This document shows positions 15,347-33,860 of a stretch of 64,000 nt of DNA, piece after piece. The stretch comes from an uncultured Oscillospiraceae bacterium. GTDB lineage: Bacteria; Bacillota; Clostridia; Oscillospirales; Acutalibacteraceae. A program made the translations under genes and the position numbers. Every line of letters starts with the position of its first letter. Positions within the stretch are counted from its first letter, which is position 1. The DNA is taken from NCBI GenBank assembly GCA_900553255.1, contig USCI01000001.1:12371-76370 (forward strand), read 5' to 3'. The notes beneath the pieces were generated by a model, which saw nothing but the letters and a program-made list of their open reading frames with translations, did no database searches and was not told the origin of the DNA.

Positions 15347-17953
15347 ATGAACGCAGGCAGAAAAACCCTTTCCGGACTGCTGGCGGCCGCTTTGTGTGCG
15401 GCGGCCATGCCCCTTACCCCGTTGGCGCAGGCACCTGACCACCTGGTAATCAATCAGGTTTACGGGGGCGGCGGAAAAGGCGACACCCCGTTTTCCCACA
15501 GCTTTATCGAGCTGTACAATCCCACCGATGCCGCCGTTGCGCTCGACGGCTACACCATCACCTACTCGTCCAACCGGAGCAATCCCGAGGGCAAGCATGA
15601 CGGCTCCACCTGGAACAGCGACGGCTCGGTGGATGTGGTGGAGCTCTCCCTGAGCGGCAGCCTGCCGTCCCGTCACGCGTATCTCATCCGCTGTGCGGCC
15701 GAAGAAACCGATTCCCCGGCCGTGACGCTGAGCGATTACGATCGGGAATGGGATCAGGTGATCGACAACGAAAAGGCGGTCGAGGTGATCCTGTATGACG
15801 GCGAAACCCGTGTGGACGCGGTATCCACGCGGGACACCGATTTCCGTGATGTGGGGGAGGGAAACGCACCGGCCACGGACGAGATTTCCAAGCAGAAATC
15901 CCTGCGCCGCACCAATTTCTCCGATACGGACAGCAATGCGGCCGACTTCCGGGTGGTTGTGTGGAATGCGCTGCCCGCCGACCCGGCGCAACGGCAGGCG
16001 TTTATCGACACCTACCGTCCGCGCAGCCTCGCGGACGGGGAATGGACCGAGTCGCTGACACCGGAGGATGAGGAAGAGAACCCCTCCCTTCCCGAACAGG
16101 ATTTTACCCGGAAAAATGACGGCTTTGAAAACGGTTCCGCTATGGATCTGAACAAAATCGGCAGCTACATTTCCGACTATTCCAACAAGGACGGCGGTGT
16201 GGCGGAAATCGTCTCCTACGATGCCGCGGCCAACAAGGCCTGGGTGGTCAACGGCACCACCGGCATGCTCGATATTCTGGATCTGACCGGTGTTACCTGC
16301 GGCGTGTCCGACACGATGACGGCCGAATCGCTGGATATCAAGTCGATTGTGGAACGGGAAGCGGCGGGCTTCGCCTATGGCGATATGACCTCGGTGGCGG
16401 TCAATTCCGAGCGGGGCATCGCGGCCGTCGCGCTGCAGGAGGCCGGGTATGACAAGAACGGCAAGGTTGCCCTGCTGGATACCGAGGGGACGCTGCTCGC
16501 GCTGCTCGATGCGGGCTGCCAGCCGGATATGCTCACCTTTACGCCCGACGGCTCCCGCATCCTTGTGGCGAATGAGGGTGAGCCGCGGGAAGGCTATGGA
16601 CCGGGCATCGCCGATCCGGCCGGGTCGGTGACCATCCTGACGCTGGACATGGAAAACCTGGCGGAAAGCCGTTCGGAAACCATCGGATTCGAAGCCTTTG
16701 ACGGGCAGCGGGAGCAGCTTGCCGCTGACGGGGTTATGCTGAAAAAGGGTTCCCTGCCTTCGGCCGATTTTGAGCCGGAGTACATTGCGTGCGATGACAA
16801 AACCGCTTACGTCGCGCTGCAGGAGGCGAATGCGGTCGCGGTGCTCGACCTCACAACCAAAGCCTATACTGGCGTGTATTCCCTCGGCTACAAGGATCTG
16901 AGCCGGGAGGAAAATGCGATTGACCTGGTGGAGGACAATGCCTATTCGCCCAAAACCTATCCGCAGGCGGTGGGCGCCTATATGCCCGATGCCGTCTCGC
17001 TGTACAGCGCCGGCGGGAAAACGTATCTGCTGACCGCCAATGAAGGCGACGCCCGGGAATGGGGCAAGGATGCGGCGGAGTATGTCAACGAAATAAAGGT
17101 GACTCTTCACGCGGCGGACGGCAGTGCCGCCGAAAAGGTCCGTGTGGTTGATCCGGAGGGGATCGACGGCATGCCGGAAGGCAGTTCGGTGCTTTTCGGC
17201 GGGCGCTCCTTCTCGGTGTACCGCGTGGAGGCGGACGGGCTGACGCAGGTGTTTGACAGCGGCAATGATTTTGAAGCGAAAACCGCGGCATATATCCCCG
17301 CCTTCTTCAACTGCTCAAACGACGACAACGCGTTTGACAGCCGCTCCGCCAAGAAGGGGCCGGAGCCGGAAAGCGTTACGGTCGGCACCGTTGAGGGCAG
17401 AACCTACGCCTTTGTTGCACTCGAACGAATCGGCGGCATTATGGTATACGACATTACCGACCCGGATGCGGTCACCTACAGCAACTACATCAATACCCGC
17501 GATTTTGCGGAGGATCCCGACAAGGCCAATCCGGAGAAGAACCCGGGGTTCAGCCTGACCGGCGATTTTGCCCCCGAGGGTCTGTATTTTATCGGCGCTG
17601 ATCAATCCCCCTCGTCCACGCCGATCCTGCTGGCGGCCTTTGAGGTCAGCGGCACGGTCGCGGCGTACGCCGTCGGTGAAAGCCCGTCTACCCACAACCT
17701 GGATTATGTGCCGGCCAAGGAGCCTACCACGCAGGAAGCCGGCAACCGGGAATACTGGGTCTGCCGGTCCTGCCACAGGCTTTTTGCCGATGCGCAGGGT
17801 ACTGTGGAGACCACCCTGGCCGAGATTACTCTCGACAAGCTGACGGATGCCCCGGATACCGGCGTGCAGGCGCCGGCGTATATCCTGGCGGCGCTTGTGC
17901 TGCTGGGTACAGCGGCTTTGGGGGTTTTCGTTGCAAAGCGCAGGCGGGTATAA
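15347..17953 (+). CDS. secreted LTD (lamin-tail) domain + choice-of-anchor-I-like beta-propeller protein with C-terminal anchor
   Basis: Signal peptide. LTD motif 'LVINQVYGGGG..FIELYNPTD'. 'PEPESVTVGTVEGRTYAFVALERIGGIMVYDITDP'. C-terminus 'APDTG-VQAPAYILAALVLLGTAALGVFVA-KRRRV'. Confidence 0.75.
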   Translation: MNAGRKTLSGLLAAALCAAAMPLTPLAQAPDHLVINQVYGGGGKGDTPFSHSFIELYNPTDAAVALDGYTITYSSNRSNPEGKHDGSTWNSDGSVDVVELSLSGSLPSRHAYLIRCAAEETDSPAVTLSDYDREWDQVIDNEKAVEVILYDGETRVDAVSTRDTDFRDVGEGNAPATDEISKQKSLRRTNFSDTDSNAADFRVVVWNALPADPAQRQAFIDTYRPRSLADGEWTESLTPEDEEENPSLPEQDFTRKNDGFENGSAMDLNKIGSYISDYSNKDGGVAEIVSYDAAANKAWVVNGTTGMLDILDLTGVTCGVSDTMTAESLDIKSIVEREAAGFAYGDMTSVAVNSERGIAAVALQEAGYDKNGKVALLDTEGTLLALLDAGCQPDMLTFTPDGSRILVANEGEPREGYGPGIADPAGSVTILTLDMENLAESRSETIGFEAFDGQREQLAADGVMLKKGSLPSADFEPEYIACDDKTAYVALQEANAVAVLDLTTKAYTGVYSLGYKDLSREENAIDLVEDNAYSPKTYPQAVGAYMPDAVSLYSAGGKTYLLTANEGDAREWGKDAAEYVNEIKVTLHAADGSAAEKVRVVDPEGIDGMPEGSSVLFGGRSFSVYRVEADGLTQVFDSGNDFEAKTAAYIPAFFNCSNDDNAFDSRSAKKGPEPESVTVGTVEGRTYAFVALERIGGIMVYDITDPDAVTYSNYINTRDFAEDPDKANPEKNPGFSLTGDFAPEGLYFIGADQSPSSTPILLAAFEVSGTVAAYAVGESPSTHNLDYVPAKEPTTQEAGNREYWVCRSCHRLFADAQGTVETTLAEITLDKLTDAPDTGVQAPAYILAALVLLGTAALGVFVAKRRRV

Positions 17954-18706: not shown

Positions 18707-19856
18707 TCATTCCTCGTTCACAACCTTTGCACGTAGCAACAGACAGTCATGTGGAGCAATAGAGGCAGTATAGCGATAATCGCAGGTTTCGGATACGTCC
18801 CCAGTCCAGAGATTGGTCATGACCAACTTTTTACCGCAGGAACGGTTGAGGCCCAATTCCGCCATACAGAAATAAAAGTTACTGACATCGTCGGATAGAT
18901 TGAACAGGCCGATGGCGAAATCTCCATTGTTCAGGAGTCGTGCCATGATAAAGCAGTCCTCTGTACCACCGCGTACATCTGTCTGGTTTCCACCAAGCAG
19001 AAACGGCTGACAATAGGCAGGATCCTGATTAATGGCCAGCACCTCTTTGTTCATCAGTATGGTGCGTGTCTGCTCATCCATATGACGAATATCGCAGCCA
19101 ATCATGAGGGGAGAGGCAAAGAAAGCCCAGAGTGAAAAATGGGTGCGGTATTCAGCGAAGTCGCACCCCTGGAGACCGACATGTCCCTGGCCATTCATGC
19201 CCACTACCAGCATATCCATATCGTTAAAGCAGCCATGGCCGTTGTAGGGAAACAGCGCTCGCTGTTGCTTGGTCAACGATTTTATTGATTCCCAGGAGTC
19301 TACAATATCCGGAGTAGAGCGCCACATGTGGGCACCAGTGGTTTTAATCCAGCGGTGGGTTTCATCAGCCCCCCCAGGAGCAAGCGCTGAAAAGGATATC
19401 CCGGCCGCAGTTGGCCAGAGCAGTTCCCATGCGTCGGTAAAGCAGGTCTCCCGTATCCTCCGCCGGCTTGAAGCAGTAATCATATTTCAGAAAATCTACG
19501 CCCCATTCAGCAAAGTTTTGGGCGTCCAGAAATTCGTGCTCATAACTGCCCGGATATTGTCCGCAAGTCATACAGCCTGCGCAGGAATAAATACCAAATT
19601 TCAACCCCTTACTGTGCAGATAGTCCCCCACCGCTTTCATTCCATGAGGAAACTTATCCGTATTCACGACTAGCCGGTGCTGGTTATCCCGCTGCTTTCG
19701 CGCCCAAGTATCATCAATGACAACATATGTATAGCCGGCATCACGCAGTCCACTTTCCACCAACACATCTGCACATTCAAAAATGAGTTGTTCGCTGATT
19801 TTATCCGCAAATGTATTCCATGTGTTCCATCCTATAGGAGGTGTCAACTGATTCAT
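18707..19856 (-). pseudogene. GH27 alpha-galactosidase interrupted by a +1 frameshift in a G7 homopolymer
   Basis: N-terminal ORF (19365..19856): 'PPIGWNTWNTF', 'YVVIDDTW', 'LKYDYC'. C-terminal ORF (18707..19483): 'GAHMWRSTPDI', 'NDMDMLVVG'. The frames join if one base of the C7 run at 19369-19375 is removed. Confidence 0.85.
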
Positions 19857-19984
19857 ATTTTATTCCCCTCACGATTCTATTCTCTTCATCAGTATACTGA
19901 TGAACTGACACAGAATGCAACGCAGAATGTTGCCGGAACTTTGCATTTTGTTGCATCTAGAAAAAATTTATTATTGCACATTTG

Positions 19985-20845
19985 TTACATAGAGCCGGGA
20001 CACACTTCTTTCTCATTGCGGTACCGGAAACGATATTCCCGTGGAGAGCATTCATATTTGAGAGAAAACAGTCGATAAAAGGAGGAAAAAGTGCTGAAGC
20101 CCGTAGCCATTGCAATTTGTGATATGGAGAGATCACTGGTGATAAGCAGCTTTTTGGCCAGATCGACACGGTAATTGTTTAGATATTCATTTGGGGAAAT
20201 GCCGACTTCTTTTTTAAACAATCGATAAAAATAGCTGCGGTTAATCGAAATCATGTCGGCCAATCCGGATACGGTGAGATGAGAATTGTAGTTGAACTGG
20301 ATATAGCTTATCGCTTTCTGTACGTATTCTTTGGTCAAAGTGTTTTCCGTTTCCGGCGTATCAACGTGATCCATGAGGATCTCAAACATGCGCAGTAGCT
20401 GAATGGTGGCATACATGTCAATATTGCGGAAGGGCTTACTTAGGATAGTTTGAGCGGTTTCGATGATCAGGTCGCTCAACTTCATATCGTTTAGCGTAAT
20501 AACCATATTTCCATCCGCAAAACTGGTCCGCTTTAGAAGTCTTTCCACCATTTCCCCTTTGCAGGCAAAAAAGCTGTACTGCCAGGGATCTGTTTCATCA
20601 GCTGTATAAGTGGTAATCTCTTGTGGGTAGATAATAAACGCCTGGCCTTCATGTATATGGTAAATATTTCCGCGAGCGACATAGGTGCCCTTCCCGGAAG
20701 TAACCAGATGGATGAGATAAACCTCGCGTATGGCGGGACCGTAACAATAGCCACTTTCGCAAATATCCCTCCCCGCATGGCAGAAACTAAGGGATGGATC
20801 ATGAGAATTAATTGTGGCAAATAAAACCGGATTACGTAATGCCAT
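19985..20845 (-). CDS. AraC-family transcriptional regulator (cupin sensor + HTH)
   Basis: 'LIHLVTSGKGTYV' cupin-like N-terminus. C-terminal 'LTVSGLADMISINRSYFYRLFKKEVGISPNEYL..' has two HTH units. ATG at 20845; the track's longer N-terminal extension overlaps the IS remnant. Confidence 0.85.
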   Translation of the reverse strand: MALRNPVLFATINSHDPSLSFCHAGRDICESGYCYGPAIREVYLIHLVTSGKGTYVARGNIYHIHEGQAFIIYPQEITTYTADETDPWQYSFFACKGEMVERLLKRTSFADGNMVITLNDMKLSDLIIETAQTILSKPFRNIDMYATIQLLRMFEILMDHVDTPETENTLTKEYVQKAISYIQFNYNSHLTVSGLADMISINRSYFYRLFKKEVGISPNEYLNNYRVDLAKKLLITSDLSISQIAMATGFSTFSSFYRLFSLKYECSPREYRFRYRNEKEVCPGSM

Positions 20846-20847
20846 AC

Positions 20848-21290
20848 GCCAAAGAATTGACACATGACAACCACTGGATACTCTGTCCTGTGACGATAGA
20901 TGATGTGATATTTGATCCTTGGCCTCACTTCCTTTCTGTGCATTGCAGAAAATCCCGCAGCAGCTTATTCTCCATCTGTAAACGCCGGAACTCGTACGCC
21001 TGCTCTGCTTCCTTGCTGACAAACTTTGCCTCCTTTCGGCGGCGTCCTTTGGGACTGGGCAGGATTCCTGCTGCCAGTTTCGCCTGCTTGCGGTTATACC
21101 GGTTTATCCAATTCTTGATCTGCACCTTACTCAATCCAAGCCGCTCTGCTATCTCTTGCCGTGTCAATCCCATCTCCCGCATAGCCAGTATTTCTCCCTC
21201 TAACGCTTGCAGATGTGTGTATTTGTTCTTGGACATATGAACACCCCCTGTATAGGTCTATTTTCCTACACAGGGGGCGTTTTGTCCATT
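20848..21290 (-). mobile_element. IS3-family insertion sequence remnant (orfA plus the first ~25 codons of orfB)
   Basis: orfA at 20925..21236: 'LAMREMGLTRQEIAERLGLSKVQIKNWINRY..RRLQMENKLLRDF'. An orfB-like start 'IKYHIIYRHRTEYPVVVMCQFFGV' in the adjacent frame breaks off near 20850. Boundaries are approximate. Confidence 0.7.
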
Positions 21291-21333
21291 GTCCGTTTTT
21301 ACTGAACCGGTTCAAAATTGCCGCAGGGCTTTT

Positions 21334-22305
21334 TTAAAGCACCGCCAATGCCAGCCACAGCACGCCCGCTGTGGTCAGCAGCGCCGGCGCGCTGCGGAAG
21401 GGCCTCGGCAGATCGCTGTTGTCCACCCGGTACCAGACGGCGGCAAACAGGCAGCCGGCCGCAAACAGGATTGCCGCGCCGGCAAGCTGCCAGAGCAGGG
21501 CCTGCCAAATCCCGGCCGAGCGGCAGGACAGCCACGCCGTAAACGCGGCCGCCGCCATCCATACTCCATCCGCCGCCTCCGGCTTATACAGCCAGGACAG
21601 CGCGGCGACGGCCGTCACAAACGCGGCGGCGGACGGCAGCCATTCCTCCGGGAATACCGGCCAGATCATCCTCAGAAGGCTGAGCAGCACGCCCGCGGCC
21701 AGCGCGATCAGCGCAGCCAGTGCGGCCGGGAGGATCCCTTCGGCCGGACGCGGCGGCGCCACCGGCTTCCCCCGCAGGCAAAACAGCGCGAGAAGCAGGC
21801 CGGCCACCACCACACCGCTACCGCCGGCCGCAAAATCCGCCGACAGGCCCGCAGGCAGCAGACGTACCGCAAACACGGTGCCGTAGGCGAGCAGCTCCCG
21901 CACGGCGCCGATGACCACCGGCGCAAGGGCGGCGAGATAAACCCGTCCGCCCGACGGGGGCGTTTCGCTCCACTCCTCCGCCGCCGGCGCGCAGCTGAAC
22001 ACCATCGCATAAAACAGCCACAGCGGCGGCAGCCGGTCGGCCACGGCAGGCCAATATGCCAGCAGCAGCACCCGCGACAGCGTTGCGAGAAAGGCAGCGG
22101 TGAGCAGCAGCGCACCCTGCCGTATGGCGGCGGGCAGCGGCCGGAACAGCCGGGCAACCGGGATCAGGATCAGCAGCAGCCACGCGCCGAACATGGTCAC
22201 CAGCAGGCCGCCGAAGCCCGACACGCCGGCCGCCGCGCCCGTGCACAGCAGCACCGTCGATGCGGCCAGCCCGCGGTGCGCCGCCGTTTCCTTGGTATTC
22301 GTCAT
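21334..22305 (-). CDS. Rnf/Nqr-type membrane subunit, apparent RnfE-RnfA fusion (divergent)
   Basis: N-terminal half: 'AYWPAVADRL' and 'VIGAVRELLAYGTVF' resemble RnfE 'AYVPALYNSLG' and 'GSIREILGNGTIF' (from memory). C-terminus 'DLPRPFRSAPALLTTAGVLWLAL' resembles the RnfA end 'DIPKPFKGIPITLITAGLLALAF'. About 9-10 TM helices. Confidence 0.6.
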   Translation of the reverse strand: MTNTKETAAHRGLAASTVLLCTGAAAGVSGFGGLLVTMFGAWLLLILIPVARLFRPLPAAIRQGALLLTAAFLATLSRVLLLAYWPAVADRLPPLWLFYAMVFSCAPAAEEWSETPPSGGRVYLAALAPVVIGAVRELLAYGTVFAVRLLPAGLSADFAAGGSGVVVAGLLLALFCLRGKPVAPPRPAEGILPAALAALIALAAGVLLSLLRMIWPVFPEEWLPSAAAFVTAVAALSWLYKPEAADGVWMAAAAFTAWLSCRSAGIWQALLWQLAGAAILFAAGCLFAAVWYRVDNSDLPRPFRSAPALLTTAGVLWLALAVL

Positions 22306-22329
22306 CTTCCGGATCCTCCCTTTCTCCTG

Positions 22330-23310
22330 TCAGCGGGCCGCATCGCGGACAAACCGGTACGCGAGATTGGCCGCGCGCACCACCGCTTTGGAGGATACGG
22401 TCGCGCCGGATACCGCGTCCACCGCGCCGCCGTCGCCGGGAACGGCGACCGTATTATCCTGACCGGCGGCCTCGGCGAGCGCCTGCGCCGCCAGCTCAAC
22501 GAATTCCCCGACCGAAACCGACACACCGGCATAGGCGTCGGTTTTGCCGTCCGCTTCGTTATATACCAGCTTTGCCGGGTCCTGCACGCTCAGCAGTGCG
22601 TTTTCCATGGTCTGCGCCTGCTCATGCCAGCCGGGGCCGTCCTCGGTCATCACATACCGTCCGGCGAGCGATTCCGCCTTTTTGGTGGAATCGCTGTCCC
22701 GCTTGTCGGCGTCCCAGTTGACCGCCGTGATCTTCCCGCCGGATATGGTCAGCTCCACAAAGGCGCGGTAGCCGGCGCCGTCATAATCCGGTTTCTGTGC
22801 CCGGTATTCGCCGTCGGCCCACACCGTCTGCACAGGCGGGGCGGACGTATCCCCCGGCTCATCGATGCCGGTATAGCCGCCCACCGAGGCCGGTGCGGCC
22901 AAGGCGGTAAACTGGCCGTAAAACGCTTCCTCGGTGACCCGGGAGCCGTAGCCCATCGTTTCACTGTTGCGGCCGACCCGCAGGCCGATAAACCGCGACG
23001 CATCCGGCGAAAGCGCCGTTTTGACCTCGAGATCCCCGCCGTAGCCCTTCACCTGCACCGTGACCGCATAGCCGATCACCGCACCGGATTCATCGAGTGC
23101 GCGATAGGCCGACACGATGCCCTCCGCGTCCCCGGCGTCCATCGCCTCATAGCGTTCTGCCTCGAGCAGGCCGGAAAAATTCTCACGTACCGCCTGTTCC
23201 TCCTGCCGGACGGCCAGCGTTCCGGACACCTTGTCCATCCCCCACAGCAGGCCGACCGAAGCCACGCCGACAATCAGCAGATTCCGTACGGTTTTTCCCC
23301 ATGTTTTCAT
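22330..23310 (-). CDS. rnfG: RnfG-like FMN-binding subunit with a ~130-aa inserted second FMN_bind-like domain
   Basis: N-terminal TM anchor. 'GYGGDLEVKTAL', 'NSETMGYG' and C-terminal 'VDAVSGATVSSKAV' (flavinylation-type SGAT motif). At 326 aa it is much longer than a typical RnfG of about 200 aa. Confidence 0.7.
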   Translation of the reverse strand: MKTWGKTVRNLLIVGVASVGLLWGMDKVSGTLAVRQEEQAVRENFSGLLEAERYEAMDAGDAEGIVSAYRALDESGAVIGYAVTVQVKGYGGDLEVKTALSPDASRFIGLRVGRNSETMGYGSRVTEEAFYGQFTALAAPASVGGYTGIDEPGDTSAPPVQTVWADGEYRAQKPDYDGAGYRAFVELTISGGKITAVNWDADKRDSDSTKKAESLAGRYVMTEDGPGWHEQAQTMENALLSVQDPAKLVYNEADGKTDAYAGVSVSVGEFVELAAQALAEAAGQDNTVAVPGDGGAVDAVSGATVSSKAVVRAANLAYRFVRDAAR

Positions 23311-23329
23311 CCTTCGTCCCTTCCTCTCG

Positions 23330-24256
23330 TCAAGCGGCGTGCCGGCCGACCCGCACGCCGTACACCCGCGGCATGGTCAGCCATTCGATCAGCGGCGCTG
23401 CGGCGTTCATCAGCAAAATCGCAAAGCAGACCCCCTCGGGATACGGCCCCCAGATGCGCAGCACCGCCGTCAGGATGCCGACCCCTGCGGCAAAAAGACA
23501 TTCCCCTACCGGCGTCGTCGGCTTCGAGGTGAAATCGGTGACCATAAATACCGCGCCGAGCAGCAGGCCGCCGGACAGCAACTGCGCGGCCGCCGCCCCG
23601 GTGAAGGGCGTCGTTCCGCCGAATATCCAGTAGACCAGCGCAAAGCTCCACACACAGGTAACCGGCACCCGCATGCGGATTACCCCGCGCAGGCACAGAT
23701 ACACCATGCCGATCAGGATCAGCAGCGCGGAGGTTTCCCCCATGCTGCCGTTCTCATAGCCGAAGAACAGCGGCCACAGGGACGCATCCAGACCGGCTTC
23801 GGCAATCGGGGTGGCTGAGGATACGGCGTCCGGGCGCACATAGCCGCCCAGCGTCTGCGGCAGGGCGACCAGCAGCAGGGCACGACCGGCCATCGCCGGG
23901 TTGAACAGGTTGTGCCCGATACCGCCGGGCAGCTGCTTGACCACTGCGACGGCGAAAACGCCGGCCAGAGCCGCCGCCCAGAGCGCCGTACCCGCCGGCA
24001 GGGACAGCCCCAGCAGCAATCCGGTTACCGCCGCGCTGCCGTCAAAGCCGCCCCGGCCGCGCAGCTTCAGGCAGACCCAGTCCGCCAGGGAACACACCGC
24101 GGTGGTGGTCGCCAGAACGGCCGCCGCCTGCCAGCGGAACAGCCACACCGCCCACGCACACACCGGCAGCAGCGCGATCACCACGTCGGCCATGATAGCG
24201 GAGGTGGTGCGTTTTCTCCGGATATGCGGGGCGGCCATTTCCTGTTTTATCGCCAT
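23330..24256 (-). CDS. rnfD: Rnf electron-transport complex subunit D
   Basis: 'APHIRRKRTTSAIMADVVIALLP' typical N-terminus. 'DAVSSATPIAEAG' FMN-attachment motif. About 8-10 TM helices. Confidence 0.9.
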   Translation of the reverse strand: MAIKQEMAAPHIRRKRTTSAIMADVVIALLPVCAWAVWLFRWQAAAVLATTTAVCSLADWVCLKLRGRGGFDGSAAVTGLLLGLSLPAGTALWAAALAGVFAVAVVKQLPGGIGHNLFNPAMAGRALLLVALPQTLGGYVRPDAVSSATPIAEAGLDASLWPLFFGYENGSMGETSALLILIGMVYLCLRGVIRMRVPVTCVWSFALVYWIFGGTTPFTGAAAAQLLSGGLLLGAVFMVTDFTSKPTTPVGECLFAAGVGILTAVLRIWGPYPEGVCFAILLMNAAAPLIEWLTMPRVYGVRVGRHAA

Positions 24257-24379
24257 AGCCCATCGCTTCCTTTCTCACTCAATGGTCGGTACCCGGCCGG
24301 AAAATGCGGCGGTGCCGCAGCAGCAGGCGGGATCTTGTCCCGGCGGCCGATCCTTCCCAGGAAACCATTCCCTTGCCTC

Positions 24380-25666
24380 TCATCGTTTCGCCGCACGCGC
24401 CCGGGCGCGGATGCCCTCCCGCGCCATGCCCACCCGCGCGGCAAGCGGCCGCTTGGCCGGACAGGTGTACGAGCAGCAGCCGCAGGAGATGCACTGCGCC
24501 GCGTGCAGCGCTTCACAGACATCCCGCCGTCCGGCGATCACCGCCGCGTCGATCGCAAAGGGCTGCAGCCGCGACGGGCACACCCTCGCGCAGCCGCCGC
24601 AGCGGATGCAGGGCTGTTCGGTCCATCCGGGACGCCCGAGCAGTATCAGCCCGGACGTGGATTTGGTCATCGGCACATCCAGCCGGTCGAGCACCCGGCC
24701 GGTCATCGGCCCGCCGAAAACCGCGGTCAGCCCCTCGCCGCCCGCGCCGCCGCAGAAGGCCAGCAGGTCGCTGAGCAGGGTACCCACCGGCGCATAGACG
24801 TTGCCGGGATGCGCCACCTGCCCCGCCACCGTCACCAGCCGGTGGGTCAGCGGGAAGCCCGCCATCGCGTCCGAAAGCGCCGCGGCGGTGGCGACATTAT
24901 TCACGATTGCGCCGACATCGGCGGGCAGGCCGCCCTCCGGCACCTCCCGTCCTACCGCCGTCTGGATGAGCTGCCGCTCGCCGCCCTGCGGGTAGCGGTC
25001 GGGCAGCTCGAGGATTTCCACCCCGAACGGCAGCGCCGCCTCCCGCAGCTTTTTCACCGCGTCCGGCTTATTGCTTTCCACGCAGATTTTTACCGCCGCG
25101 CCCGCCGCCTGGCCGAGCGCCGCCGCGCCCGCCACCACCCGGTCGGCATGCCGCACCATCAGCTGATGGTCACAGGTGAGATACGGCTCGCATTCGCAGC
25201 CGTTGACCAACACCCAGTGGATCGCCTTATCGGTTTCGTACTTCACCGCGGTCGGAAACCCCGCACCGCCCATGCCGATCAGCCCTGCCTCCCGCATAAG
25301 GGTACGCAGGCCCTGCGCACCGGGCAGGTGCTTGATCCCCGGCGCCGGCGTGTCGCAGCCGTCGTTTTCCACCACCACACACAGGCCTTCTCCTTCGAGG
25401 CAGGGACGGTTTTCCACCGCGGTGACCGTGCCGGACACGCTGGCATGCACCGGCACCGACATTTTCCCGTCCGCCCGGCCGATCAGCTCACCCTTTCTCA
25501 CCGTCTGCCCCGGTTCCACCACCGGCAGCGCCGGCTTAGCCAGCCCCTGCGCCAGCGGGATGACCACCTGCGGCGGGGCAAGGGTCTGCACCGGCAGGTT
25601 TGCCGTCTCCTCTTTATGCTCGGTCTGATGCGGGAGAGCGATGCCCCCGCTGAATTTTGCGCCCAT
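24380..25666 (-). CDS. rnfC: Rnf electron-transport complex subunit C (NADH/FMN and 2x[4Fe-4S])
   Basis: 'GMGGAGFPTAVKY', 'CECEPYLTCD', 'CIRCGGCARVCP' and 'CISCGCCSYTCPA'. Confidence 0.9.
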   Translation of the reverse strand: MGAKFSGGIALPHQTEHKEETANLPVQTLAPPQVVIPLAQGLAKPALPVVEPGQTVRKGELIGRADGKMSVPVHASVSGTVTAVENRPCLEGEGLCVVVENDGCDTPAPGIKHLPGAQGLRTLMREAGLIGMGGAGFPTAVKYETDKAIHWVLVNGCECEPYLTCDHQLMVRHADRVVAGAAALGQAAGAAVKICVESNKPDAVKKLREAALPFGVEILELPDRYPQGGERQLIQTAVGREVPEGGLPADVGAIVNNVATAAALSDAMAGFPLTHRLVTVAGQVAHPGNVYAPVGTLLSDLLAFCGGAGGEGLTAVFGGPMTGRVLDRLDVPMTKSTSGLILLGRPGWTEQPCIRCGGCARVCPSRLQPFAIDAAVIAGRRDVCEALHAAQCISCGCCSYTCPAKRPLAARVGMAREGIRARARAAKR

Positions 25667-25687
25667 CCGGCAGCCTCCGTTTCTTCA

Positions 25688-26734
25688 TCACTCATCCAGA
25701 CAATGCCCGGCAAAGCCCAGGGTCATCTCCCGGCTGCCGTCCGCAAATATCCACAGTGCATCGACAGCCGGCAAGCTCTCCACCGCTGCCCGGCCGGTGG
25801 CATACGGCTGTGCGAACAGTGCGGTGGACAGGTAGTCCGCCGTAAACGCATCCGGCGCCAGCACACACACCGCACGGCAGTAGCGCGCCGGATACAGGGT
25901 GGATTCTTCCAGGATATGCGCATAGTATGTCCCGTTTGCGGCAAAATACTTCTGGTAATCCCCGCTGACCCCCAGGCACCGGTCGGTGAGAGCCAGCGTC
26001 ACGCTGTATTCCGGCACCTCCCGGCGTCCGGACAGGTTGAGCACGGCGTCCGGCTCCCGCAGGGCGACCGTCCAGCCGCTGCTCTCCGGCGGCGCGCCGG
26101 CGCACACCATGGTGCTCTCCCCGAAATCCAGCAAAAAATCGGTCAGCCTCAGTTCGCGCAGCCGCGCTGCGGCGGCATCCGCCGCGTGGCCCTTGCCCAC
26201 CGCGCCGAGATCGAGCGACAGCTCCGGGTCGGCGATGGTGATTTTTTCGCTTTCCGGATCCGCAATAACCTGATCCAGCGCCATGTGCTCCCCCGCATGC
26301 TGCAAAGCGGCAGCATCCGGCAGCACGCCGGACGCCCGGGCCTGCTCCCACAATCGCAGCACCGCCCCCATCGCGATGTTCGTCCCCGGCACCCGGGCAT
26401 ACAGCGCCTGGCAGCGGCCGACCAGCGCACACAGCTCCGCCGGGCAGGCAGCCGTGCCGCCCGCCGCCGCATTCACCCGGGACACCGCACTGTCCGGCCG
26501 GTGGACGTCGAGCAGCGCTTCCTGCCGCTCCAGCTCCCCGCGCACCGCCTCCACCGCCCGGATGAACTCCGCTTCGTCGGCACAATACACGATCATCCGC
26601 GATACGGTATCCATTGCCCCGATAAACTCGGTGGAAAACCGCCGCGGCGCGGGATCGGCCGCCTGCGCCATACAGCCGGTCAGACCCACACAAAGGATGG
26701 TCAATATCCCCAAAAACATCCGGCGCATCTTCAT
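25688..26734 (-). CDS. apbE: ApbE-family FAD:protein FMN transferase lipoprotein
   Basis: Lipobox 'LTGC'. 'MDTVSRMIVY', 'SAVSRVN' and 'LDLGAVGKGHAAD' ApbE-like motifs. First gene of the rnf-like operon. Confidence 0.85.
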   Translation of the reverse strand: MKMRRMFLGILTILCVGLTGCMAQAADPAPRRFSTEFIGAMDTVSRMIVYCADEAEFIRAVEAVRGELERQEALLDVHRPDSAVSRVNAAAGGTAACPAELCALVGRCQALYARVPGTNIAMGAVLRLWEQARASGVLPDAAALQHAGEHMALDQVIADPESEKITIADPELSLDLGAVGKGHAADAAAARLRELRLTDFLLDFGESTMVCAGAPPESSGWTVALREPDAVLNLSGRREVPEYSVTLALTDRCLGVSGDYQKYFAANGTYYAHILEESTLYPARYCRAVCVLAPDAFTADYLSTALFAQPYATGRAAVESLPAVDALWIFADGSREMTLGFAGHCLDE

Positions 26735-26865
26735 CCCCCTAACAAATCGCAGGCTTGACCCGATATTGTCCTTTTATTGTGCCCCGAAGTATGGTATAGT
26801 TTGTACAAAGTGGATGAATTTTTTCTCCGACCGTTGAATAACGGATGCGAAAGGATGAGGCTTCG

Positions 26866-27345
26866 ATGAAAAGAACCCATTGGTTTTCCGGAGCGGCAGG
26901 GATCGCCTGTGCGCTGATGATGGCGGCCATGCTGTCAGGATGCTCGAAGGAACCGGCGGGCAGCGATGCGGGTTCCGCTCCCGCAAGTGACACCGCCGCT
27001 TCCACCACCGCGGAGACAACGCCGGCTACCACGACGACCACTCTGCCGGGCGAGCCGGCGGCCTATCCGGTGCGCGGCTGGTGCTCGGACGATGACGTCC
27101 TTGTGCGCAGCGGGCCGGGCAAGGAATACGGCGCCATCGGCGGTGCGCACAAGGGCGAGCAGTTCAGCGTGCTCGGGCGCGAAGGCGACTGGTACAAGGT
27201 GCAGCATGGCGAGGACGAGGGCTATATCAGCGCCCAATTCATCCGGTTCAGCCTCGAAGAGGCGATGGCGACGACTACCACCGAAGCGCCGACCACCACG
27301 GCGGATACCGGCGAGAATTCCGCGCAGGAGGGACAGGATTCCTGA
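26866..27345 (+). CDS. SH3b-domain lipoprotein with Thr/Ala-rich linkers
   Basis: Lipobox 'MLSGCS'. 'VLVRSGPGKEYGAIGGAHKGEQFSVLGREGDWYKVQHGEDEGYISAQFI' is a bacterial SH3 motif. ATG 26866 follows GAGG. Confidence 0.75.
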   Translation: MKRTHWFSGAAGIACALMMAAMLSGCSKEPAGSDAGSAPASDTAASTTAETTPATTTTTLPGEPAAYPVRGWCSDDDVLVRSGPGKEYGAIGGAHKGEQFSVLGREGDWYKVQHGEDEGYISAQFIRFSLEEAMATTTTEAPTTTADTGENSAQEGQDS

Positions 27346-28138: not shown

Positions 28139-28190
28139 GACAGCAAAAGGCTGCCGCACCAGCGGCAGCCTTTTGCTGTCTGTTGCTTTT
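28139..28190 (+). terminator. strong hairpin with a U-rich tail only on the + strand, abutting the stop of the minus-strand permease gene
   Basis: GACAGCAAAAGGCTGCCGC / GCGGCAGCCTTTTGCTGTC (19 bp) followed by TGTTGCTTTTT. Confidence 0.6.
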
Positions 28191-29005
28191 TACGCGTTCC
28201 GGTTGCGAATAAAGAAGGTGCCGAAAAACAGCGCCGCCGCAACCAACACGATCATCGGGCCGGTGCCCACTGCGTGATAATACGAGAGCAGCAGGCCGAG
28301 CAGGCCGGAAAACAGGCCGAAAATCAATGCGAGGACGTGGTAGCTGCGCATGCTGCGGGACACGTTGCGCGCCGCAGCCGCCGGCAGGATCAGCATCGCG
28401 TTGATGATCAGCAGCCCCACCCAACGGATCGCCAGCATCACAATCACCGCGATAATCACCACAAACAGGTTATCGAGAAAGGCCACCGGGATCCCCTTGC
28501 TGCGGGCAAGCGACGGGCTGAGGCTGACCGCATGCAGGCTGTTGAAGCACAGCAGCCACAACAGCACGACCACCACCAGCGCGCCGGCGAGCACCGCCAG
28601 CTCCCCGCGGGAAATGCTCAGGATATCCCCGATGAGCAGGCTCTGGTATTTGGAAAAGCTGCTGCCCCTCGAGAGGATCACCAGCCCCAGCGCCACGCCG
28701 CAGGAGGAAAACACGCCGATAACCGTATCGGTCGAGGAAAGGCGGGAATGGCGGATGCGATTCATCAGCAGGGCAAACACCACCGCAAAGGCGATCATCA
28801 CAAGATTCGTATCGGTGAAGCCCAGCAGGACGCCAATGCCCACGCCGGTCAGTGCGGAGTGCCCGAGCGCATCCGAAAAGAACGCCATGCCGTTATTGAC
28901 CACCAGCGTGCCGAGCAGGGCAAACAGCGGCATAATCAGCAGCACGGCGACAAAGGCGTTACGCATAAAGTCATACTGCCACCAGCCAAACAGGGCGTCA
29001 AGCAT
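28190..29005 (-). CDS. metal (zinc-type) ABC transporter permease, ZnuB/AdcB-like
   Basis: ABC-3 type membrane protein with 8-9 TM helices. ATG 29005 overlaps the upstream stop (ATGCTTGA). Confidence 0.85.
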   Translation of the reverse strand: MLDALFGWWQYDFMRNAFVAVLLIMPLFALLGTLVVNNGMAFFSDALGHSALTGVGIGVLLGFTDTNLVMIAFAVVFALLMNRIRHSRLSSTDTVIGVFSSCGVALGLVILSRGSSFSKYQSLLIGDILSISRGELAVLAGALVVVVLLWLLCFNSLHAVSLSPSLARSKGIPVAFLDNLFVVIIAVIVMLAIRWVGLLIINAMLILPAAAARNVSRSMRSYHVLALIFGLFSGLLGLLLSYYHAVGTGPMIVLVAAALFFGTFFIRNRNA

Positions 29006-29747
29006 GCGCAATCCCCTCCCCTTCCGGAAATGCCGCGCGGAACGCCTCATCGGCAAACACCGTCTCCGGGTCGCCGGATGCCGCTACCCGGTGGTCGAGC
29101 AGCACCACCCGGTCCGCATGCCGCCGGACATAATCGAGGTCATGCGACACCAGCAGGATCACCATATCGTCGGTGGCCTTGAGCCGGTCCACCGTTTCAT
29201 AAAACTGCGCCAGCCCCGCCTGGTCGACGCCGGAGACCGGCTCGTCCAGGATCAGCAGATCCGGCTTGGGCAGCGTGGCAACGGCAAGCAGCACCCGCTG
29301 CAGCTCGCCGCCGGACAGCCGGCCCACCGGCTTATCCAGCAGCATGTCCGCCGAAAAGCGCGCCAGGTGCGCCCGCAGCGCCTCGGTCTGCTTTTTCCGC
29401 CGCGGCAGGAAGGCCGGATAGGCCGAGGAGTACGACAGCAGCATATCGTACACCGTCGCGGGCGAGCCGCTGTCGATGTTCAGCGACTGCGGCACATACC
29501 CGATGCGGGGCTTATGCACCCGCTCGCCTGCCGTATGCCCGCTGAATTCCACCGTTCCGGTGTGGCGGATCTCCCCCAGAATCGCCTTGAGCAGGGTGGA
29601 TTTCCCCGCACCGTTGCGCCCGATGATGGCGGTCAGCTCGCCGCAGTGCGCGTGCAGGTTCACATCGGTCAGGATCACCGTTTCCCCTGCCCGCACGCCG
29701 ATATGGTTGATTTTCAGGCAGTGCAGCCCGCAGCCGGTCGCAGTCAT
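28998..29747 (-). CDS. metal ABC transporter ATP-binding protein, ZnuC/AdcC-like
   Basis: Walker A 'GRNGAGKST', signature 'LSGGELQRV', Walker B 'LLILDEP'. ATGA overlap with the upstream gene. Confidence 0.9.
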   Translation of the reverse strand: MTATGCGLHCLKINHIGVRAGETVILTDVNLHAHCGELTAIIGRNGAGKSTLLKAILGEIRHTGTVEFSGHTAGERVHKPRIGYVPQSLNIDSGSPATVYDMLLSYSSAYPAFLPRRKKQTEALRAHLARFSADMLLDKPVGRLSGGELQRVLLAVATLPKPDLLILDEPVSGVDQAGLAQFYETVDRLKATDDMVILLVSHDLDYVRRHADRVVLLDHRVAASGDPETVFADEAFRAAFPEGEGIAHA

Positions 29748-30676
29748 GCCGTCTCCCCCCTCAGCTTGCGCAGGTTTTCCCGCATGGCGTTCAGCCAGGC
29801 GTCCGGGGACTCATCCCCGACGACCCCCATGTCCAGCTGCAGGATCCTGCCGTCCGCCGCACTGTCCGCAAGGTATTCGTACGCCGGGTCGTACTGGTTG
29901 TCGTACAGCAGCCACACCTGTCCGGCTGCAGCTGCGGCCTGCTGCGCCGCCGCCAGATCCGCGGCGGACACCCCCGCATCCTCCCCGATCGGCAGGGAGG
30001 CGAGCGGCGTCAGGCCGAGATCGTCGGCAAAATACCGCAGCGATTCATGGAACAGGATGCAGCCGTCAAACGGCAGCGATGCGGCGGTATCGGCAAACGC
30101 CGCCCGGATCTCCCCGATTTCCGCGAGGTATTGCGCGGCGTTGTCCCGATACTGCGCGGCATGCGCGGGATCCGCCTCACACAGCCCGTCGCGCAGGTTT
30201 TCCACCTGCCGGTAATACCGGCTGGGGCTCGTCCAGATATGCTCATTGACCAGCTCCTCGTGGATTTCGCCGTCCTCGTGCTCATGCGCATGTCCGCTCT
30301 CCAGCAGCGAAATCCCCGCCGAGGTATCCACCACCGGCAGCTCCGGGAACCGGCTGCGCGCATCGTCCAGGAACGCCTCGGCTCCCGCTCCGTTGATCAC
30401 CAGCACATCCGCTTCCGCAAGCGTAATCATGTTGTCCGGCGACAGCTGGAAATCGTGCAGGCAGCCGGTCTGCGGTCCGGTCAGGCTGATGAGCTCCACA
30501 TCGCCGATCCCCTGCGTCAGGTTCAGCGCCGCCACATACACCGGATAAAACGACGCGACGATCCGCGTTTTTTCCTTCCCGCGCTGCGCCGTACCGGTCA
30601 GCAGCGTAATCACCGCCGACAGCGCCACAATGCCCGCCATCAGCAGCGCCACCTGTGCGTAAACCCGTTTTCCCAT
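29744..30676 (-). CDS. metal-binding lipoprotein/SBP, ZnuA/AdcA-like with His-rich loop
   Basis: 'IVASFYPVYVAALNL' and 'CLHDFQLSP'. His/acid-rich loop 'SGHAHEHEDGEIHEE' typical of zinc-specific cluster A-I SBPs. Confidence 0.85.
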   Translation of the reverse strand: MGKRVYAQVALLMAGIVALSAVITLLTGTAQRGKEKTRIVASFYPVYVAALNLTQGIGDVELISLTGPQTGCLHDFQLSPDNMITLAEADVLVINGAGAEAFLDDARSRFPELPVVDTSAGISLLESGHAHEHEDGEIHEELVNEHIWTSPSRYYRQVENLRDGLCEADPAHAAQYRDNAAQYLAEIGEIRAAFADTAASLPFDGCILFHESLRYFADDLGLTPLASLPIGEDAGVSAADLAAAQQAAAAAGQVWLLYDNQYDPAYEYLADSAADGRILQLDMGVVGDESPDAWLNAMRENLRKLRGETA

Positions 30677-30702
30677 GCCGCCCTCCAAAAATGCTTCCGC
30701 TC

Positions 30703-31549: not shown

Positions 31550-31897
31550 ATGGTACGGAAATTTCAGAGCCTGCCCGCCGAGCAGCGGGAGCATATGCGC
31601 GGCGGGGACGGGACGGTTACCCTGACGCCCGGCCTGCAGGCCGGGGATTACGCCGCGAAGCTGCGGCTGTTCTCCCGCATCACGCTGCCCGCCGGCGCCT
31701 CCATCGGCGCCCATGTGCATGAACAGGAGGAGGAATTTTTCTACATCCTCGCCGGTACCGGCGAATTCAATGACAACGGCACGGCGATCGCCGTCGGGCC
31801 GGGGGATTCCACCGTCACCCGCAGCGGCGAATGCCACTCCATCCGCAACACCGGCGATACCCCGCTCGAGCTGCTCGCGGTCATCGCCACGCTGTAA
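31550..31897 (+). CDS. cupin-domain protein
   Basis: '[25 protein letters not shown]' and '[19 protein letters not shown]' cupin_2 motifs. Confidence 0.8.
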
Positions 31898-31939
31898 GCC
31901 GCGCAGCCGCGGGGAACAGGGCAAATGCACGCCCGGTTC

Positions 31940-33860
31940 TCACCAGCGGGTGAGCGGGACGCCGTTTTCGCTGAGCACGATATTGCCGTCCTGCACCGCG
32001 ATGTCGTAGAGGTACGTTTGCGGCGTGTCGCCCCACGTGACGCCTTTCACCCGGAGTTTGCCGTCCGCCGTCTCCACAAAAGAGAACTGGGGGGTAAACA
32101 TCCAAAAACAGGACGAACGTCGTGCTGTATTCCGGCCGGCCGTCTTCGGCAGCCGAAAAGGTGAAGGTGAACAGGCCCGAGGTGGGTCCGGGTCCCAGGC
32201 AACAGGTTTCCTCTCTGCCGTCGCCGTCGATGTCGGCGACGGCGATGCTTTCGGCAGCAGGATACCCGTCGTATTCGTCGATATTGACAATCGCGTATAC
32301 CGTTTGGATCTTCGCGGGATAGGATACCGCGATCAGGCCGTCATAGAAGATGCGGACCAGCGAGCCGACGGTCAATGCAGCGCGTTCGCTTTCGGTCATG
32401 CCTCCCGCGGAAACCCAGATTTTATCCGCCGATCTGGCCTCATCGCTGCCGTCGAGCGGCCGTACCAGCAGGGATTCCCCGTTCACCTCCAAGACGGTGG
32501 CGGCGAAGTTCGGCGCAGCGGCCGTATCGGCGGCCTGCACCTGCGTCCGCAGCTTATCAAAAATCTCCCGGACCGCCTCCGGGTTCTGCACCTTATAGGA
32601 ATGCGCCGGGGGGTCCCCGTCATACAGCCAAAACGCCGTATACCCATCGTTGAAGCAGAGATACACACCGCCGAGCGCAGACGACGCCGAGGGAATTGCA
32701 TCCGTCTCGGACTGCAGCACAAGGGCATGGGCGGGGGTTCGGTCTTTGCCCGGGTCGTTGAGCAGCGGACGGCGGCGTATACGGATATTCCCGATCGTTT
32801 CCAGCTGCACGTCCTCCACAGAGGGCAGCCGCCGGTACGCCCCGCCGTCCCCTACCCACAGGCAGGCCGTTTCCCCGAAAACGGCCTCCAGGGAGATCCC
32901 CTCATCGAACGCCGACAGCGTCATCCCGGCCGGGTTGGTCAGCAGGCACACCGCCGCTGCCGCACAGAGCACAACCGCGGCGGCGGTCAGCCAGAAAGCC
33001 GGCTTTTTATAGCTGAGCACGTTTTTCACCCGTTCCTTTACCCCCACCTCGGCGAAGGACAGCGGACAGGCGGAAAGGCCGCGGCGGCCGGCGCTGCAGG
33101 ACAGCAGTGCTTCGGAATAGGCCTTTTTTTCCTGCAGATCCAGTGTCCTGACCACCCGTTCATCGCAGGCCAGTTCCATATCGCGGCAGAAAAACCAATA
33201 CGCCAGCCAGCACAGCGGGTTGAACCAGTAGACCGACAGCAGGAGAAAGCCCAGCGGCTTCCAGAGGTAATCCCGGCGCTTCAGGTGGGCTTTTTCATGG
33301 GCGAGCACATAGGCCATCCGCCCCTCGTCCAGGTCGGACGGCAAATAAATGCGCGGCTTCCAAAAGCCGAAAATAAACGGGGACGCCGTCTGGTCACACA
33401 GCCAGATATTGTCATCGACCCTCATCGCCGCGCCTACCCTCCGGCGCAGGCGGAAACAGCTCACCGCCGCATAGACCAGCATGGCGGCCAGACCGGCTGC
33501 CCAGATCACCGAAGCTGCAAAGACCGCAACCTGCAGCGGGCTGACGCTTGCCTCCGGCACAGGTGCGAAAGACTGTGACATGAACGGATTCATGGCGCTG
33601 TCCAGCGCGGGCATACCGCTGTCGACCGCCGGCGTCCGTGCATAAAGCATTTCGGGAGAAAGCGTTTCCTCGCTGGGGATCAGGCTGAACACGCTTTCCA
33701 GAGAAAACGGACACACCAGCCGGAAGGCAACAAATGCCCACAACAGGCAACGTATCCCCTTCGATGCCCTTTTCAATAGAACGCGAAGCAAAAGCACCGC
33801 AAAAATCAGCCATCCGGCCGCGATGCTCCGGTTCAGCAGCTCCAGGAATACCGTTTCCAT
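31940..33860 (-). CDS. BlaR1/MecR1-like M56 peptidase membrane sensor; 3' end disrupted by an apparent frameshift at a C6 run
   Basis: 'VLAHEKAHLKRRDYLWK' (HExxH) and N-terminal TM helices. The plausible C-terminus 'FSFVETADGKLRVKGVTWGDTPQTYLYDIAVQDGNIVLSENGVPLTRW' lies in the other frame (31940..32290). The frames join if one base of the run at 32089-32094 is removed. Confidence 0.75.

Follow-up and report, generated by a model that had tools for sequence, protein, structure and literature searches.

A conserved Rnf-like operon without rnfB from an uncultured Oscillospiraceae bacterium, with an RnfE-RnfA fusion and an extra flavin domain: a possible route for electron export

The DNA analysed here (64,000 nucleotides of contig USCI01000001.1 from an uncultured Oscillospiraceae bacterium; this whole stretch is called the window) carries a five-gene Rnf-like operon that lacks rnfB. 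Rnf and Nqr belong to the textbook examples of redox-driven ion pumps. With high confidence we regard this operon as a conserved variant of Rnf which has no RnfB and is deficient in the ligands of the intramembrane iron-sulfur cluster. Our reading of its function, to which we give a probability of roughly 0.55, is that of a one-way wire: electrons would pass from reduced nicotinamide adenine dinucleotide (NADH) over RnfC, RnfD, RnfG and an extra flavin to an extracytosolic acceptor. The ferredoxin branch of Rnf would be missing by design and the NADH branch is predicted to be intact. An earlier note on this DNA had described a non-canonical Rnf-like operon at this place. The operon is real, since its five minus-strand open reading frames (ORFs) were confirmed, all running in one direction within 21334-26734 of the window and separated by gaps of 21, 123, 19 and 24 nucleotides, and its subunits were identified by hidden Markov models (HMMs) and profiles. 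The genes are the following (aa, amino acids):

25688-26734, minus strand: apbE, 348 aa, first gene of the operon, ApbE-family flavin adenine dinucleotide (FAD):protein flavin mononucleotide (FMN) transferase, predicted lipoprotein
24380-25666, minus strand: rnfC, 428 aa, cytoplasmic NADH/FMN-binding subunit
23330-24256, minus strand: rnfD, 308 aa, membrane subunit
22330-23310, minus strand: enlarged rnfG, 326 aa, N-terminal membrane helix and an interrupted FMN-binding core
21334-22305, minus strand: RnfE-RnfA fusion gene, 323-aa membrane protein

In canonical Rnf two transmembrane branches meet at the flavin of RnfG; the first leads from RnfB to a [2Fe-2S] cluster of RnfA and RnfE, and the second connects the flavins of RnfD to RnfC and NAD(H) (PMC12174285). 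RnfA and RnfE are six-helix paralogues with inverted topology. Four inner half-helices of the Rnf/Nqr core, two per subunit, each provide one cysteine to the intramembrane [2Fe-2S] cluster, which receives its electrons from RnfB or NqrF (PMC12174285). The same 2025 review describes the membrane-core cofactors of Rnf and Nqr as strictly conserved (PMC12174285).

No RnfB-like ORF was found in the window, in agreement with the earlier note. RnfC is the sole ORF there with ferredoxin-type CxxCxxCxxxC motifs, and the same motif scan recovered RnfB in a canonical locus (L013) that served as positive control. Moreover, a tblastn search of the window with RnfA, RnfE, RnfC and RnfD of another cluster revealed no second rnf locus. 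The core of RnfC, RnfD, long RnfG and fusion protein without rnfB recurs in ten other loci (L001, L006, L009-L012, L015, L016, L051 and L052). These include metagenome-assembled genomes titled uncultured Ruminococcaceae or Oscillospiraceae (L009-L012), metagenome contigs (L001 and L006) and the cultured Anaerocolumna cellulosilytica (L015, AP023367.1). In the flanks of all ten no RnfB-like gene was detected by the motif scan or, for L015, L016, L051 and L052, among the Pfam-annotated called genes. The operon begins with apbE in seven of the ten (L001, L006, L009-L012 and L052); in L015 apbE lies on the opposite strand, and none was called adjoining the core in L016 or L051.

It had been suggested in the earlier note that rnfB may have been lost at a remnant of an insertion sequence (IS) next to the operon. 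We compared the window with L001, L009 and L002 by blastn, which located the end of the conserved unit:

21313-21333, no strand: 3' boundary of the conserved unit

Towards the closest relatives, L001 and L009, nucleotide homology of about 85% extends from 27.3 kb of the window to position 21313, where it stops, 21 nucleotides beyond the stop codon of the fusion gene. Both relatives have the same operon end without an IS, and other genes follow it, never rnfB; in L001 the fusion gene is followed by a convergent GT2 glycosyltransferase gene. Among the ten loci the genes past the operon vary (GT2, a HydABC-type hydrogenase operon, rpsO-pnp, NusG_II), and a search for rnfB beyond the operon end found it in none of them. 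Since none of the ten other loci has an IS remnant either, rnfB was not lost to the IS, and we rejected an IS event as the cause of its absence on the synteny of relatives that lack the remnant. These results also bear on the view that the operon encodes an ordinary ferredoxin:NAD+ Rnf with canonical function, its rnfB having been removed by an IS event or being encoded elsewhere. The IS-type helix-turn-helix (HTH) remnant directly downstream, the canonical sequence of RnfC, RnfD and the RnfG core, and a search limited to the window would all agree with this view. However, it has to account for relatives without the IS which share the operon end and have no rnfB, for ten loci of the same gene order with no rnfB in their flanks, and for an RnfA half that lacks helix 1 and the cluster cysteines (see below), so that the site reduced by RnfB would not be formed in the canonical way. 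We therefore regard it as very unlikely.

The 323-aa protein had been proposed by the earlier note to stand in place of separate RnfE and RnfA, with a comparison to HMMs as the check. In a single-sequence scan it had no Pfam match, the Rnf-Nqr model included, and the NCBIfam scan gave only a weak match to the C-terminal part of RsxA (E 0.0019). When 21 family members were scanned one by one, Rnf-Nqr matched in two (best E 0.54). As single-sequence Pfam scans miss the family, databases name these proteins hypothetical. With the 323-aa protein, HMMER was run exhaustively against 1.84 billion representative proteins and returned 24 matches, about 17 of them full-length (285-346 aa). To judge from so few matches the fusion proteins form a small, divergent family, and among the ten loci their identity goes down to about 20-30%. 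A word-indexed protein search, with the single protein or with an alignment, returned near-identical sequences only, probably owing to the Ala/Leu-rich sequence. One database homologue (P0005) matches the fusion blockwise and is divergent elsewhere, which fits frameshift errors in a metagenome assembly.

The identity of the protein emerged from a profile of 19 family members (A3) that was searched against all PDB sequences. Positions 13-177 matched RnfE/NqrD chains (7zc6_E, E 4e-9; 8ahx_E, 3.7e-7; 7xk3_D, 3.8e-7) and positions 187-325 matched RnfA chains (7zc6_A, E 7.3e-8; 9eri_A, 2e-5; 8ahx_A, 6.4e-4). Further matches were a weak one to NqrE (7xk3_E, E 0.09, positions 258-325) and one to an unrelated membrane protein (E 0.17); there was no significant unrelated match among all PDB sequences. 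The alignments to 7zc6_A, 9eri_A and 8ahx_A all begin at RnfA residue 35-39 and about ten residues lie between the halves, which indicates that helix 1 of RnfA is absent. The 323-aa protein is thus best described, on profile evidence, as an RnfE fused to an RnfA without its first transmembrane helix. The proposed fusion was upheld and refined by this loss; the check by the single-sequence Rnf-Nqr model failed to recognise the protein, whereas the family profile against solved structures recovered both RnfE and RnfA. Separate six-helix RnfE and RnfA are not present in the operon, which encodes one chain of six plus five helices:

21766-22305, minus strand: RnfE-like half of the fusion, aa 1-180, six helices (profile A3, hhalign, Foldseek)
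21337-21747, minus strand: RnfA-like half of the fusion, aa 187-323, five helices, corresponding to RnfA residues ~36-184 with helix 1 missing

The RnfE half contains Cys21, Cys105 and an invariant G-x-x-R-E motif (aa 133-137; G133, R136 and E137). An AlphaFold2 model of the fusion based on the A3 alignment showed six and then five helices, with a predicted local distance difference test (pLDDT) score of 87.4 and a predicted template modelling (pTM) score of 0.85. Foldseek searches with this model, which we used as supporting evidence only, gave a probability of 1.00 (9eri_E) and 0.98 for RnfE, with a template modelling score (TM-score) of 0.59 and a root-mean-square deviation (RMSD) of 4.3-4.5 Å, and of 0.89 for RnfA. 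The E-values were poor and unrelated helical transporters dominated at an RMSD of about 20 Å; only RnfE and RnfA superposed. Aligned by hhalign with canonical RnfE and RnfA of the control locus L013, the fusion family scored 94.4% and 61%, respectively, and the RnfA-like half was also aligned with canonical RnfA by MAFFT. The fourth protein of L016 (286 aa) aligned with the fusion family over its full length (hhalign 97.7%), and that of Anaerocolumna (271 aa) has at least the central G-x-x-R-E segment in common with it. Saaf et al. 1999 are said to have placed both termini of RnfE inside and both termini of RnfA outside. With this topology, joining the two proteins head to tail would preserve both orientations only after the removal of one helix. 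We infer that the loss of one helix did keep both orientations, and the charge distribution fits, with R178, K180 and R186 in the linker and E220 and E221 in the following loop.

The ratio of nonsynonymous to synonymous substitution rates (dN/dS) between the window and L001 was 0.16 for ApbE, 0.04 for RnfC, 0.07 for RnfD, 0.09 for RnfG and 0.16 for the fusion, which places each of the five genes under purifying selection. Together with the synteny, these values indicate that the layout without RnfB is an evolved and maintained design. A pseudogene or decaying locus was rejected on dN/dS and conservation. The corresponding explanation, a functionless rnf remnant in which the 323-aa ORF arose by gene decay or an assembly frameshift, could draw on the failure of Pfam to recognise the protein and on the frameshifted appearance of P0005. 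It is hardly credible for genes with a dN/dS of 0.16 (fusion) and 0.04-0.09 (RnfC, RnfD and RnfG), for a fusion with full-length homologues (316-346 aa) in many lineages beside the same neighbours, and for a chain with a confident AlphaFold2 model.

The cysteine ligands of the intramembrane cluster are largely missing from the fusion family. Its alignment has two columns in which cysteine is frequent, both in the RnfE half: Cys21 (15 of 17 sequences), which aligned on the LGLCP cysteine of canonical RnfE, and Cys105 (13 of 19), located at the VNC cysteine of canonical RnfE or up to 4 residues from it. In the RnfA half there is no conserved cysteine column and no other conserved cysteine or histidine column in this alignment; the deletion has taken away the helix that bears the first cysteine, and alanine-rich sequence lacking cysteine stands at the TNC position. 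The fusion therefore retains no more than two of the four cysteine ligands of the [2Fe-2S] cluster, themselves dispensable in some members, and the intramembrane cluster is presumably absent. Through the loss of RnfA helix 1 and of both [2Fe-2S] cysteines the electron path that is normally fed by RnfB would be removed. Alternatively, the complex might still be a two-branch, energy-coupled machine in which Cys21 and Cys105 together with other ligands, or with a second copy of the fusion, bind a metal, and a cytoplasmic partner replaces RnfB as NqrF does in Nqr. Nqr is indeed a precedent for the replacement of RnfB by another module (PMC12174285), Cys21 and Cys105 are kept in most members, and selection on the fusion is purifying, with G133, R136 and E137 invariant. 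Nevertheless, no conserved candidate partner lies beside the operon, as the flanking genes vary among the loci. Cys105 is lacking in 6 of 19 and Cys21 in 2 of 17 sequences, which fits a relaxed rather than a strict constraint, and the RnfA half offers no further conserved cysteine or histidine column. This alternative is unlikely, though it deserves to be kept in mind.

The assignments of ApbE, RnfC, RnfD and RnfG from their sequences are firm. ApbE matched PF02424 with an E-value of 7.6e-51 over positions 1-266 of 266, and its lipoprotein signal ends at the lipobox LTGC (aa 18-21); the domain is of full length and the predicted location is extracytosolic. RnfC scored 382.9 bits with TIGR01945 (E 1.5e-114; cut-off 245.95) and comprises RnfC_N, Complex1_51K (E 1.3e-43) and SLBB domains. 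The Complex1_51K domain and two CxxCxxCxxxCP [4Fe-4S] motifs (aa 353-364 and 392-403) agree with the NADH and iron-sulfur motifs that the earlier note had called intact. PF03116 is the sole domain of RnfD (E 3.8e-97), spanning residues 8-300. Over its full length the protein could be aligned with the RnfD of Clostridium tetanomorphum, whose structure is solved (7zc6_D, E 1.1e-62); DAVSSATP then lies on the DGVTTATP segment of the flavinylated threonine. SSAT (aa 146-149) is aligned with TTAT of 7zc6_D, so this site is intact as well, and Thr149 is the predicted site of covalent FMN.

RnfG is enlarged, as the earlier note had stated, and the enlargement consists of a complete extra FMN-binding domain. 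Matches of the 326-aa protein to the FMN_bind/RnfG model were split in two stretches. A search with it yielded 93 homologue clusters of about 300-470 aa, and a profile of 35 of these (A6) matched the RnfG chain 7zc6_G over two separate stretches (residues 7-139 and 150-184; E 3e-23). Positions 159-281 of A6 matched a stand-alone domain of C. thermocellum (2kzx_A, A3DHT5; E 1.8e-39), which has the motif DAISGAT at the corresponding site, and also 3o6u. RnfG therefore has a core with a second, complete FMN-binding domain nested inside it:

22462-22827, minus strand: nested FMN-binding domain of RnfG, about aa 162-283, DAYAGVS at aa 258-264 (profile A6, Foldseek)
22333-22434, minus strand: closing segment of the RnfG core, SGAT at aa 301-304, aligned to 7zc6_G residues 150-184

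With the AlphaFold2 model of RnfG (pLDDT 84.3) Foldseek matched RnfG and NqrC chains, and the nested domain was matched to 2KZX and 3O6U with TM-scores of 0.69-0.75. In the core motif SGAT the residues G302, A303 and T304 are invariant in A6, and Thr304 is the predicted flavin site. The motif of the nested domain follows the pattern D-A-[YV]-[STA]-[GS]-[VA]-[ST], with the final serine or threonine present in all 35 homologues and a canonical [ST]GA[ST] in about half of them; Ser264 of DAYAGVS would be its FMN site. A scan of the window found just three flavinylation-type motifs, two in RnfG and one in RnfD. As these are the only ones and lie near apbE, they are taken to be the local clients of ApbE. 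The nested domain gave a weak match to the PplA model NF041941 (E 7e-7, 28.7 bits; cut-off 325).

Many relatives of this RnfG are 454-466 aa long and carry the nested domain as a tandem duplicate, which makes three predicted flavin sites per RnfG (for example L003:333-1697, L006:5928-7310, L010 and L015:10001-11395, as well as P0030-P0043 and P0098). A lone 322-aa homologue of the enlarged RnfG (P0110; L050:8001-8969) is flanked by genes for an MFS transporter and trigger factor, and neither RnfC nor RnfD is nearby; the two-flavin module exists outside the operon, too.

In the proposed wire NADH would reduce the FMN of RnfC, the two [4Fe-4S] clusters of RnfC would carry the electrons onward, and the flavins of RnfD, among them the covalent FMN at Thr149, would take them across the membrane. 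At the outer face they would arrive at the covalent FMN of RnfG (Thr304) and pass on to the FMN of the nested domain (Ser264). For the final extracytosolic acceptor one may think of free flavins, of metal or humic compounds, of oxygen, or of a flavoprotein reductase at the surface. The fusion would act as a cluster-free scaffold that holds RnfG beside RnfD, and the lipoprotein ApbE would attach all three extracytosolic FMNs. Compared with canonical Rnf, the NADH branch is extended on the outside by one flavin domain (many relatives have two). Gene content, fusion architecture, ligand loss, the extra flavin domain, conservation and purifying selection were observed, whereas we infer which way the electrons flow, that the cluster is absent, that Ser264 is flavinylated, and the acceptor. 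The suggestion made in the earlier note, a role other than ferredoxin:NAD+ coupling, is strengthened by the loss of RnfA helix 1 and of the [2Fe-2S] cysteines and still stands as a proposal.

Several observations weigh against such a wire. The two cysteines of the RnfE half persist in most members, and a cluster with non-cysteine or intermolecular ligands is possible. The RnfG model has a pTM of only 0.53, which leaves the relative placement of its two flavin sites uncertain, and in the window's clade the nested domain has AGVS instead of [ST]GA[ST], an Ala-to-Val change that makes its flavinylation uncertain. Besides, no gene for an acceptor protein adjoins the operon among its neighbours, and outward electron flow without ion pumping would serve redox balance with no obvious energy gain. 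Finally, the search of this genome for rnfB and a second rnf locus covered the window, and outside it the genome may hold a canonical rnf operon or an rnfB gene on its own. Electrons could also flow inward, taken up from reduced extracellular flavins, or the complex could serve regulation or maintenance instead of respiration, for example by keeping a redox protein of the surface or membrane reduced (cf. E. coli Rsx/SoxR). Rnf-type complexes are reversible and Rsx is regulatory (PMC12174285), and no terminal reductase gene lies nearby. However, the reduction of NAD+ by donors at the flavin level would, by established redox potentials, be thermodynamically unfavourable without an energy-coupled branch, and the added outward flavin domains, doubled in many homologues, look like the extension of an outward wire. 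We consider inward flow or a regulatory role quite unlikely and retain outward transfer from NADH as our reading.

Canonical Rnf (RnfCDGEAB; 7zc6, 8ahx, 9eri) and the operon have much in common, namely the NADH/FMN domain and two [4Fe-4S] motifs of RnfC, the flavinylation-site threonine of RnfD, an RnfG core with membrane anchor and SGAT, a presumed dependence on ApbE, helices derived from RnfE and RnfA, and the gene order C-D-G-E-A. Unlike canonical Rnf, the operon has no RnfB, a fused E-A protein without RnfA helix 1, at most two of the four [2Fe-2S] cysteines, an FMN domain nested in RnfG (doubled in many relatives) and apbE as its first gene. As RnfB and separate A and E subunits are missing and the set of four cluster cysteines is incomplete, it is not a canonical Rnf. 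Na+-NQR (NqrABCDEF) resembles the operon in the loss of RnfB and shares the ancestry of its membrane core. There, however, NqrF replaces RnfB, NqrA has no cofactors, and NqrD and NqrE are separate and hold the [2Fe-2S] cluster, whereas the operon has no NqrF, keeps the cofactor motifs of RnfC and has a D/E equivalent without cluster ligands.

Meheust et al. (2021, eLife, PMC8238504) described 'NQR/RNF-like' systems of two subunits, in which an RnfD/NqrB-like membrane domain is fused to a C-terminal NAD-binding domain of the NqrF type (FNR, PF00175) and accompanied by an RnfG-like protein. Their RnfD-like subunit has no flavinylation site, and they occur mainly in Actinobacteria and the candidate phyla radiation (PMC8238504; follow-up 2024, PMC10979944/PMC11334425). 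This class shares with the operon one transmembrane path, ApbE with an extracytosolic FMN_bind protein, and a proposed one-way flow from NAD(P)H to the outside. It is the closest concept and a published precedent for a single-path outward derivative, albeit of other architecture (PMC8238504, PMC10979944). In contrast to it, the operon has RnfC as a separate entry, keeps the flavinylation site of RnfD, carries a vestigial RnfE-A and is found in Clostridia. An RnfD-PF00175 fusion is absent from the operon, in which the 308-aa RnfD has PF03116 only, and because this defining fusion is missing the operon is not a member of the class. Since Meheust et al. defined RNF clusters by the presence of RnfB (PMC8238504), operons like this one would have been left unclassified in their study.

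For flavin-based extracellular electron transfer (EET) in Listeria and other Gram-positive bacteria, Ndh2, DmkA/B, EetA/B, PplA and FmnB are the components (Light et al. 2018, cited in PMC8238504). In that system, as is predicted for the operon, an ApbE-type lipoprotein flavinylates surface-exposed FMN_bind domains, and these serve as the final protein-bound carriers. Listeria employs a type-II NADH dehydrogenase and a demethylmenaquinone pool, whereas in the operon the crossing would be made by RnfC and RnfD with no quinone step. Genes for Ndh2, EetA/EetB or DmkA/DmkB are not present at the locus, the rest of the window not having been scanned for these families; the neighbours of the operon are an SH3_3 protein, a ZnuABC-type transporter, a BlaR1-type M56 peptidase, AraC and an alpha-galactosidase. 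The structures 2KZX (C. thermocellum A3DHT5) and 3O6U (C. perfringens CPE2226) share fold and sequence family with the nested RnfG domain; they are free-standing, uncharacterised structural-genomics proteins, while the domain of the operon is inserted between RnfG residues ~139 and ~150.

In the searchable literature we came upon no account of an RnfE-A fusion, nor of RnfC-D-G systems lacking RnfB, which is not proof of absence, and as far as can be told the feature is an undescribed variant of the Rnf family. Tentatively, and at somewhat less than even odds, we propose that it is a previously undescribed, quinone-independent electron-export machine made from half an Rnf in gut Clostridia (Oscillospiraceae/Ruminococcaceae, and Lachnospiraceae such as Anaerocolumna). 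It would combine RnfC, RnfD and RnfG with one or two extra covalent flavins, and RnfE and RnfA would have collapsed to a cluster-free scaffold, a fusion enabled by the deletion of exactly one helix. The variant would amount to a natural dissection of Rnf, in which RnfB and the [2Fe-2S] ligands are dropped and the branch from NADH to the outer flavin is isolated. If this is true, it tests where ion translocation is coupled, at the cluster of RnfA/E (NqrD/E) or at RnfD (NqrB), and flavin-based EET gains a new and direct mechanism. Abundant, mostly quinone-free gut fermenters could possibly regenerate NAD+ by passing electrons to the cell surface. The fusion also shows how two homologous subunits of opposite orientation may be joined through the loss of a single helix, and the cultured carrier Anaerocolumna cellulosilytica opens the system to experiment.

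Upstream of apbE lies a divergent gene whose relation to the operon was compared across the loci:

26845-27345, plus strand: SH3_3 lipoprotein-like gene, divergent from the operon (PF08239, E 2.7e-13)

A homologue stands divergently upstream of apbE in L001, L006, L009, L010, L011 and L052. This conserved neighbour may or may not belong to the system. Farther upstream are genes of a ZnuABC-type metal ABC transporter (ABC-3 permease, ATPase and ZnuA binding protein; window 28190-30688) and of a 659-aa BlaR1-type M56 peptidase sensor (31881-33860), with no evident link of either to the Rnf-like operon. On the other side, a low-GC island (window 18707-21313; guanine-cytosine (GC) content 0.48-0.54 against about 0.62) begins exactly where the synteny ends, and across 18-22 kb of the window the GC content falls to 0.48-0.54. 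It looks like an inserted or rearranged segment. Here a 103-aa HTH ORF (20925-21236) is not followed by a transposase body; its matches all stayed below threshold and concerned the N-terminal HTH portion of transposase models of the IS630/IS3 families. The island also holds an AraC-family regulator (within 19985-21022) and a GH27-type alpha-galactosidase in two overlapping ORFs (19365-19856 and 18707-19483), a split due to a frameshift or a pseudogene. An 868-aa protein with lamin-tail and choice-of-anchor I domains (15347-17953) is probably a surface protein.

Some observations were made around the related loci. In the divergent carrier L006 a HydABC-type set (NuoE/NuoF-like proteins and an [FeFe] hydrogenase; L006:8969-14009) starts about 560 bp past the operon, possibly by mere adjacency. 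In L016 a fused FAD synthetase/riboflavin kinase-HAD gene (L016:1239-2804) precedes the operon by about 5 kb, and rpsO-pnp lies directly past the operon in two unrelated carriers (L016:11931-14574 and L052:10073-12926). L001 carries a second Rnf-derived cluster, RnfC2-RnfD2-RnfE2-RnfA2, without an RnfG between D and E (L001:12683-16015; see also L017-L048), which does not occur in the window. No RnfB-like ORF is present within 5-8 kb upstream of RnfC2 or 7-10 kb downstream of RnfA2. RnfE2 retains only the first cluster cysteine (GICP) and RnfA2 none. Homologues of RnfE2 were found on 33 metagenome contigs, many of them labelled human gut, and the order RnfC2-D2-E2-A2 without RnfB was confirmed in all six that were examined (L017, L019, L021, L028, L035 and L045). 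This cluster may be another, unexplored cluster-deficient variant of Rnf.

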